The DNA itself: not shown here
Source of the DNA: an uncultured bacterium
GTDB taxonomy: Bacteria > UBA8481
Assembly: GCA_964499705.1 (NCBI GenBank)
Contig: CAZCME010000001.1
Span: forward strand, 8,943 to 72,942
DNA length: 64,000 nt
Reading direction: 5' to 3'
Content: a report on this DNA, generated by a model with database tools, continued

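Follow-up and report, generated by a model that had tools for sequence, protein, structure and literature searches.

Structure and composition of the junction palindrome

The boundary between the giant gene and the PorV-like gene is occupied by a palindrome of 82 nt (60830–60911), whose two 41-nt arms are 95% complementary in a repeat search. Each arm contains three tandem octamers, CACAAAGA on the left and TCTTCGTG on the right. When folded as RNA, the element forms 36 base pairs with a single A60837·C60904 mismatch and an 8-nt loop. The minimum free energy (MFE) of the 141-nt segment 60800–60940 is −66.3 kcal/mol, compared with −27.4 ± 3.5 kcal/mol for 200 dinucleotide shuffles (z = −11.1), none of which folds as well. 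The hairpin alone reaches −57.2 kcal/mol on the plus strand and −62.0 kcal/mol on the minus strand, where the mismatch becomes a G·U pair. The stem starts 10 nt past the giant-gene TGA and its base, which pairs TAACCAC with GTGGTTA, lies at +15 of the PorV-like ATG. The features of the region are collected in the table below.

The GC content of the element is 0.37, compared with 0.61–0.69 in its surroundings, and no second copy of the arm occurs elsewhere within the 64-kb window. The TTTG copies on either side are a possible, weak and T-rich, target-site duplication. Other periodic tracts and palindromes are present in several intergenic regions of the window. An Rfam scan of 60600–61100 (E ≤ 10) returned no family at threshold; the sub-threshold matches were to generic long-hairpin models, chiefly miRNA precursors and a few sRNA or snoRNA models. 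An integron attC site was also considered and rejected on inspection, the GTTRRRY/RYYYAAC ends being absent.

Features of the giant gene/PorV-like gene junction (positions in the window)
Feature	Position	Strand	Details and basis
Giant gene	31837..60819	+	9660 aa, T9SS-type C-terminal sorting domain, ends ...KFMVIR-TGA; ORF and profile match
SD-like GGTGATCC	60806..60813	+	2 nt before the ATG; encodes the giant gene's final V-I-R; read from sequence
ATGA stop/start overlap	60816..60819	+	PorV-like ATG 60816–18, giant-gene TGA 60817–19
PorV/PorQ-family outer-membrane protein gene	60816..62273	+	485 aa, C-terminal extension of ~150 aa; NCBIfam profile
Predicted Sec-type presequence	60816..60932	+	39 codons, cleavage after ASDA; n-region MTLFVNHKDTKTRRRTKKYYFVLLR, h-region VFVSSWLFAV, c-region ASDA; homolog alignment and hydropathy, rule-based
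TTTG short direct repeat flanking the element	60825..60828 (left), 60912–60915 (right)	+	87 nt apart, a multiple of three; sequence
Purine-rich 5' arm	60830..60866	+	22 A, 8 C, 6 G, 1 T; (CACAAAGA)x3 at 60834–60857; translation NHKDTKTRRRTK
8-nt loop AAATATTA	60867..60874	+	RNA fold
Pyrimidine-rich 3' arm	60875..60911	+	21 T, 8 G, 7 C, 1 A; (TCTTCGTG)x3 at 60884–60907; translation FVLLRVFVSSWL; one exact GTCTTTG
Junction periodic tracts	7/11 junctions		CACAAAGA, CACGGAGA, GGATTGYG, TAATCACA, AATCCCRA, GATTCTTG/GGATTG, ATGATGA

The flanking genes

The C-terminal 339 aa of the giant protein match TIGR04183 (Por_Secre_tail) with 24.4 bits (cutoff 23) and have weaker matches to Pfam Por_Secre_tail, FlgD_ig and CHU_C. 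This C-terminus and the synteny recur in ten orthologous loci, at all of which a gene ending in ...KF(M/L/V)V(I/V)R-stop precedes the PorV-like gene. The PorV-like protein matches NF033709 (PorV_fam) with E = 2.9e-52 and 178.3 bits (cutoff 90), residues 47–325 aligning with positions 1–326 of the 326-position profile. Because it scores below the cutoffs of the equivalog models for PorV and PorQ, we regard it as a family member, not as PorV proper. Of its homologs, 29 are full-length; the nearest are 55–59% identical, and those that carry a name belong to Candidatus Hydrogenedentota. A literature search on Hydrogenedentes and T9SS found nothing.

The hairpin as coding sequence for a predicted signal peptide

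Three in-frame starts are available to the PorV-like gene: ATG 60816, the trivially different TTG 60822 and GTG 60897. Initiation at GTG 60897 would yield MSSWLFAVASDA, a presequence of 12 residues with no basic and ~6 hydrophobic residues, whereas ortholog presequences have 23–59 residues. An (A/G)TGA overlap between the two genes is found at seven of the eleven junctions (the window and L001, L002, L003, L004, L128 and L129), L130 has TGATG, and the remaining three have a spacer of 37–160 nt. GGTGAT(C) is kept at 9 of the 11 junctions, and the conservation of this stretch, like that of GGTGATCC, is due in part to its encoding V-I-R. GGTGATCC is presumably complementary to the conserved 3' region of 16S rRNA, GGAUCACC, which we take from the general 16S sequence and not from this organism. 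ATG 60816 is therefore the best-supported start on the available sequences, which would place the hairpin at codons 5–32 of a 39-codon presequence.

The position of the mature protein leads to the same region. In all 29 homologs a hydrophobic presequence ends just before the conserved motif (A/V)(S/N)xAGSTGAxFLE(L/I)GVGAR, and because this motif begins at residue 44 in the window, the presequence is coded between 60816 and ~60932. The initial annotation had described a palindrome lying in the only plausible 5' coding region of the downstream gene, with an ATG overlapping the upstream stop. The folding result, the conserved overlap with its GGTGAT(C), and the position of the motif together with the 12 uncharged residues left by GTG 60897 bear out these points.

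By rule-based criteria the encoded presequence is a predicted Sec signal peptide, with a basic n-region, a hydrophobic h-region within the usual 7–15 residues and small residues at −3 and −1, and its cleavage region, A-S-D-A↓A, aligns with that of the 29 homologs. The left-arm portion of the n-region has a net charge of +5, the highest positive charge of all frames. The best 10-residue hydropathy of the h-region is 2.13, compared with 2.46–3.33 in the orthologs, and position 25 is an arginine. This signal peptide is thus the weakest of the ortholog set, yet it remains plausible as a predicted export signal. Excision of the element (82–87 nt, with or without the TTTG repeat) leaves MTLF(V)AVASDA, an in-frame presequence of 10–11 residues; for this reason we rejected a model of simple insertion, and the gene would now depend on hairpin-encoded residues for a workable signal peptide.

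The element is in frame with the conserved ATG and the PorV-like ORF is intact, as expected of a coding palindrome. That a frame stays open through such a hairpin says little by itself about coding: this holds for two of three frames in the window element and for 69% of frames across the family among the matches listed. Stop codons need both T and A, and the arms are consequently stop-free. Peptides from the left arm have a mean hydropathy of ~−3 and a net charge of 0 to +5 in all six frames, and those from the right arm a hydropathy of +1.5 to +2.3. The arms do read as a basic n-region followed by a hydrophobic h-region, as first proposed. Since all six frames read hydrophilic and then hydrophobic, this appearance follows from the composition and order of the arms and is not evidence of design.

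The hairpin is absent from orthologous junctions

The window hairpin is missing from all ten orthologous junctions, even though the genes on both sides are conserved, so that, by the criterion set in the initial annotation, the idea of a conserved, locus-specific structure is not supported. L007 alone has a structure of similar strength (z = −4.8), formed by an unrelated inverted repeat of the ATGATGA type; the called h-region of this locus, SFIIHHSSFIIFLFII, is encoded by the right arm of that repeat. L001 carries a decayed and interrupted inverted repeat of the CACGGAGA type (z = −1.6), the right arm of which encodes FSVALSLCG. The remaining eight junctions are unstructured (z −1.7 to +2.1), and three of the loci (L003, L129 and L130) have ordinary compact presequences. 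A periodic tract of 7–8 nt directly follows the stop codon at 7 of the 11 junctions, compared with periodic elements in ~5–6 of the ~25–30 intergenic regions of the window. What recurs at these junctions, as judged from their sequences, is the kind of sequence and not the window sequence itself; the window element would then be a lineage-specific acquisition, not a conserved operon feature. An exact search of public metagenomes with the left junction gave 0 matches, and a protein-guided metagenome scan found the L004 locus again together with one ortholog that has its own promoter and an ordinary presequence.

A dispersed family of octamer hairpins

We searched species-representative genomes with CACRAAGACACRAAGACACRAAGA, which matches both arms, and recovered at least 120 stretches. 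Among the matches listed are members of the Planctomycetota, Acidobacteriota, Chloroflexota, Cyanobacteria, Bacteroidota, several proteobacterial classes, Chlamydiota, Verrucomicrobiota, Latescibacterota, Omnitrophota and Actinomycetota, as well as one archaeal MAG. Cultured or completely sequenced carriers include Sphingopyxis sp. PET50, S. soli, S. microcysteis, Nostoc NIES-4103 and Fischerella PCC 7521, which indicates that this type of element is not a MAG artefact. About half of the listed occurrences have the motif within a long hairpin, as its 5' arm, and these hairpins follow the scheme (T-run)(A/G)(A/C)CAC[RAAGACAC]n – variable loop – [GTGTCTTY]nGTGGT(A-run). Members of the family, as we define it, have at least three CACRAAGA units in tandem, followed downstream by a complementary TCTTYGTG arm; their stem base reads (A/G)(A/C)CAC...GTGGT, and they lie 10–60 nt after a stop codon, the usual place of these hairpins. 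The window element belongs to it, as both of its arms match the search pattern and it lies 10 nt after the TGA.

The order and position of the arms are strongly biased. Among the matches listed, the complementary arm lies downstream of the motif in 56 cases and upstream in 4; because a palindrome reads alike on both strands, this purine-first order is real and strand-independent. As judged by naive ORF calling, the intergenic contexts among these matches are convergent in 11 cases, tandem in 10 and divergent in 2; for 8 of the 10 tandem hairpins the upstream stop is the nearer gene end, at 9–32 nt. Family members that appear by these calls to lie inside ORFs sit at ORF ends. A run of at least 5 T in the 8 nt past the full stem was seen in 1 of 45 family hairpins among the matches listed. 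Copies within one genome share genome-specific flanks and stems and differ in their loops, in the manner of REP sequences, and in Oscillatoriales the motif forms direct arrays that lack the complementary arm. A phage origin was considered and set aside: 2.9 million viral contigs yielded 13 matches, which makes the motif rare there. Full-text searches by arm sequences, encoded peptides and keywords found no description of the element, and the family is apparently undescribed.

A second gene family with a hairpin at the signal-peptide position

An unrelated family of HEAT-repeat/cyclophilin genes presents a similar arrangement. In L120, from an Actinomycetota MAG, the TGA of a dihydroorotase-like gene overlaps the ATG of the HEAT-repeat/cyclophilin gene, and a CACAAAGA hairpin starts at +3 of this ATG and spans MEHKDTKTQRHEEFSKIQKTLCAFVPLCLCVPLFPATVTA↓QNN. 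More distant homologs of the protein have ordinary signal peptides at exactly that position. Both the overlap and the hairpin are kept in L132 and L133, whose proteins are 89% and 76% identical to that of L120, and the three hairpins have z-scores of −8.4, −6.5 and −5.0. In the repeat units of L132 and L133, CAC/GTG has become CGC/GCG on both arms, and 5 of the 33 pairs of the family stem carry compensatory double changes. Templated quasi-palindrome mutation can yield such covariation in a DNA palindrome without selection on the RNA. The asymmetry between G·U and A·C mismatches proved uninformative as a test of the folding strand: there are 6 G·U and 5 A·C cells in the L120 family, and the window mismatch is A·C on the plus strand and G·U on the minus strand. 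Translation of these genes could also begin at a GTG or TTG within the arm, which in L133 would give MRLCALIVVLTILPVAVPA.

Terminator-like features of the window element

As in an intrinsic terminator, a stable stem-loop follows the stop codon closely (10 nt; −57 kcal/mol) and the 8-nt loop fits the usual range of 3–8 nt, but the stem is not short and GC-rich (36 bp, ~37% GC). The full stem is followed by UUAUUUGCC and not by a canonical U-tract. The 8 nt past it, TTTGCCGT, contain 4 T, and opening of the outer TAA/TTA pairs would expose TTATTTGC, with 5 of 8. On both strands a terminator scan flags an inner stem of 20 bp followed by a T-rich tail, the accepted tail being TTGTGTCT; a consensus scan of the region found 5 terminators, compared with 4.8 expected from shuffles, and thus no excess. 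A promoter-like AAGACA-18-TATTAT lies inside the element at 60846–60875, and the corresponding consensus promoter scan, with 2 found and 1.4 expected, gave no more than chance. Both the MFE and the centroid structure show one dominant hairpin and none of the competing helices that an attenuator would have.

Proposed role and alternative explanations

We regard as probable, with modest confidence, a composite reading in which a hairpin of the dispersed family is translated as a signal peptide and also acts at the RNA level at the 3' end of the upstream message. Most of the weight lies on the translation of a dispersed-family element as a signal peptide and much less on the RNA-level role. Because the ATG overlaps the giant-gene TGA, the hairpin would fall within the first 32 codons of the PorV-like gene and be translated, the purine arm supplying the lysine/arginine-rich n-region and the pyrimidine arm most of the Sec hydrophobic core. 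On the mRNA, we infer from the sequence that the stem may form or protect the 3' end of the giant-gene message, as family members may do elsewhere. It could do so as a weak, U-tract-poor terminator, with the inner stem forming first and the U-rich 3' arm then providing the slippery segment, or by blocking exonucleases in the manner of the intercistronic REP of malEFG. Under either option the giant-gene message would survive in excess of the porV message. Ribosomes ending at the giant-gene TGA would start again at the overlapping ATG and unwind the stem; with the stem base (+15) at the mouth of the mRNA channel, initiation need not be blocked, while elongation would have to unwind the helix. 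The output of the PorV-like protein would thereby be coupled to that of the giant protein and lie below it.

The alternative that deserves the most weight, a lesser but substantial possibility, is that the hairpin is a neutral or selfish passenger: a repeat that landed or expanded at the boundary and is tolerated there, with no role in transcription, RNA stability or translation control, because signal peptides accept nearly any basic-then-hydrophobic sequence. It would account for the absence of the hairpin from all ten orthologous junctions, where unrelated periodic tracts (GGATTGYG, TAATCACA, AATCCCRA, ATGATGA and CACGGAGA) are found instead, for the near-perfect arms, which suggest a recent origin, for the several other periodic tracts and palindromes in intergenic regions of the window, and for within-genome copies that act like REP or MITE-type repeats; in-frame palindromic elements are also known as the RPEs of Rickettsia (PMC10969869). 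Neutrality does not predict the 3'-end bias (11 convergent contexts versus 2 divergent) or the 56:4 arm order among the matches listed. Excision gives no workable presequence, so that the gene depends on the element, the L120-family hairpin is kept with compensatory changes across orthologs of 76–100% identity, and periodic elements are more frequent at the junctions (7 of 11) than in the intergenic regions of the window (~5–6 of ~25–30).

We consider it improbable that the hairpin is untranslated, with a start at GTG 60897 or a promoter inside the element and a stem that sequesters the start as a translational switch. The TCTTYGTG arms are indeed rich in GTG and TTG codons, in-arm starts of this kind in L133 and in two other hairpin-family loci, L102 and L113, give textbook signal or lipoprotein peptides such as MRLCALIVVLTILPVAVPA, family hairpins frequently adjoin the start codon of the next gene, and there is the promoter-like match at 60846–60875. 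That match is at chance level, however, the 12 residues of MSSWLFAVASDA fall far below the 23–59 of the 11 ortholog presequences, GTG 60897 has no ribosome-binding stretch rich in purines ahead of it, and the overlapping ATG upstream is conserved together with its SD-like GGTGATCC. Somewhat less probable still is the dedicated attenuator of the initial annotation, evolved at this place to terminate the 29-kb transcript and throttle porV-like expression. It draws on the placement of the stem, 10 nt after the stop and with its base at +15 of the ATG, on the inner 20-bp stem that the scan flags, together with its T-rich tail, on both strands, and on the inverted repeats at the L007 and L001 junctions. 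The lack of significant structure at 8 of the 10 orthologous junctions, the compact ordinary presequences of L003, L129 and L130, and the presence of the same element type at unrelated genes in many phyla argue against a device made for this operon, as do the absence of a canonical U-tract, of an alternative antiterminator pairing and of a leader peptide. A broken gene, whose PorV-like product is no longer exported, or an assembly artefact is very improbable. In its favour are an h-region weaker than that of any ortholog, with an Arg inside it, a GC content of the element far below that of the genome, and the lack of an identical junction in the public metagenomes searched; on the other side, the ORF is intact over 485 codons with a full-length PorV_fam match, and the frame is preserved from the conserved ATG. 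Elements of this type also occur inside long contigs, in GC-rich hosts and in complete genomes (Sphingopyxis sp. PET50, Nostoc NIES-4103 and Fischerella PCC 7521), and 36-bp low-complexity arms are not a signature of fold-back chimeras.

A possible cold-shock protein connection and wider implications

Cold-shock proteins (Csps) are near-universal RNA chaperones and transcription antiterminators. Bacillus subtilis CspB prefers the heptamer 5'-GTCTTTG/T-3' in vitro, with a strong preference for C3 and for T2, T4 and T6 (PMC1904285). This heptamer is repeated in tandem along the family's pyrimidine arm, (GTCTTTGT)n. In the 3' arm of the window element it occurs once exactly, as GTCTTTG, and once approximately, as GTCTTCG; the CspB consensus does not match the other periodic types found at the orthologous junctions. 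A Csp could account for both the cross-phylum octamer core and a hairpin that can be melted. Several candidate binders were considered, which makes the agreement less remarkable than its raw odds would suggest.

More broadly, and tentatively, the family may be an undescribed class of stop-proximal RNAs present in most phyla: bidirectional terminators or 3'-end barriers that lack a U-tract, can be melted by Csps, are recurrently recruited as signal peptides, and keep their pairing by compensatory substitutions while being translated. We rate this generalization as doubtful. Recurrent recruitment is proposed because the arms are stop-free and read basic-then-hydrophobic in any frame and on either strand. 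A purine/pyrimidine hairpin automatically provides an n-region and an h-region, which offers a concrete route from non-coding repeat DNA to a functional protein module, and at least two unrelated families of secreted proteins appear to depend on such a hairpin. Stop-free hairpins also give rise to small ORFs and lengthened N-termini in metagenome-assembled genomes at large; the window case indicates that a part of the longer N-termini is probably real, so that blanket trimming would be wrong. An octamer core found from Sphingopyxis to Nostoc to Planctomycetota in a fixed order and position calls for a common binding factor or mechanism, and cultured hosts of the family exist. The window hairpin, placed exactly between a gene for a 9660-aa cargo and its conserved PorV-like partner, would be an obvious candidate for setting their expression ratio. 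It is more interesting than a plain terminator, though for a reason other than the one first given: it belongs to a widespread family and is a ready-made signal peptide.

Comparison with known systems

Intrinsic terminators, including bidirectional ones with an extended A-tract/U-tract, and the pneumococcal SPRITE resemble these hairpins in lying a few nucleotides after a stop codon and in being enriched between convergent genes; because of the purine-first order, the 3' arm of the hairpin is U-rich on both strands. However, intrinsic terminators have GC-rich stems of 5–14 bp, whereas the window stem is 36 bp, AT-rich and without a canonical free U-tract, and the outer flanks of the family, a 5' T-run and a 3' A-run, are the reverse of those of bidirectional terminators. 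The four-base ATGA overlap, the SD-like sequence in the last codons of the upstream gene and their conservation across orthologs are those of translationally coupled gene pairs; ordinary pairs of this kind do not have a stem of ~−57 kcal/mol beginning at +15 of the downstream start. Unlike MITEs, with their clear TIR and TSD, the window element has the weak TTTG flanks alone.

REP, BIME and REPIN sequences are, like the hairpin family in other genomes, dispersed extragenic palindromes found at gene 3' ends or between convergent genes, with multiple copies per genome. An intercistronic REP reportedly stabilises the upstream malE mRNA in E. coli (malE–malF; Newbury et al. 1987), and the proposed stable 3' hairpin would favour the upstream cistron in an analogous way. 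The malE–malF work is cited in PMC7509114. REPs differ in being GC-rich, ~35 bp long and species-specific, with a 5' tetranucleotide of the GTAG type and a tie to RAYT transposases; none of these features, the GTAG head included, is seen in the window element, which has a core octamer common to many phyla and is predicted to be translated. The TAACTGA heptamers of Beggiatoaceae, Cyanobacteria and Bacteroidetes and the cyanobacterial STRR also have tandem units of 7–8 nt that are spread over distant phyla and adjoin start codons, and the cyanobacterial copies of the CACRAAGA motif resemble them in forming direct arrays without an inverted partner. For repeats of the TAACTGA type there is no known transfer mechanism, and the binding proteins proposed for them are cold-shock proteins, S1 and CsrA (PMC4679880). 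These are untranslated direct repeats with no hairpin, whereas the window array pairs with a complementary array to form a long stem.

The RPEs of Rickettsia are palindromic repeats that lie within ORFs, in frame, and whose encoded peptide is tolerated (PMC10969869). They differ in their length of ~150 bp, their restriction to one genus, their conserved peptide and their position in internal surface loops. The window element, at 82 bp, consists of tandem octamers with a cross-phylum core, lies at the extreme 5' end of its gene and supplies a predicted signal peptide, a functional module and not a passenger loop, and it is by this description that we set it apart from RPEs. It is best described as a variant form among the dispersed palindromes that probably serves as signal-peptide coding sequence.

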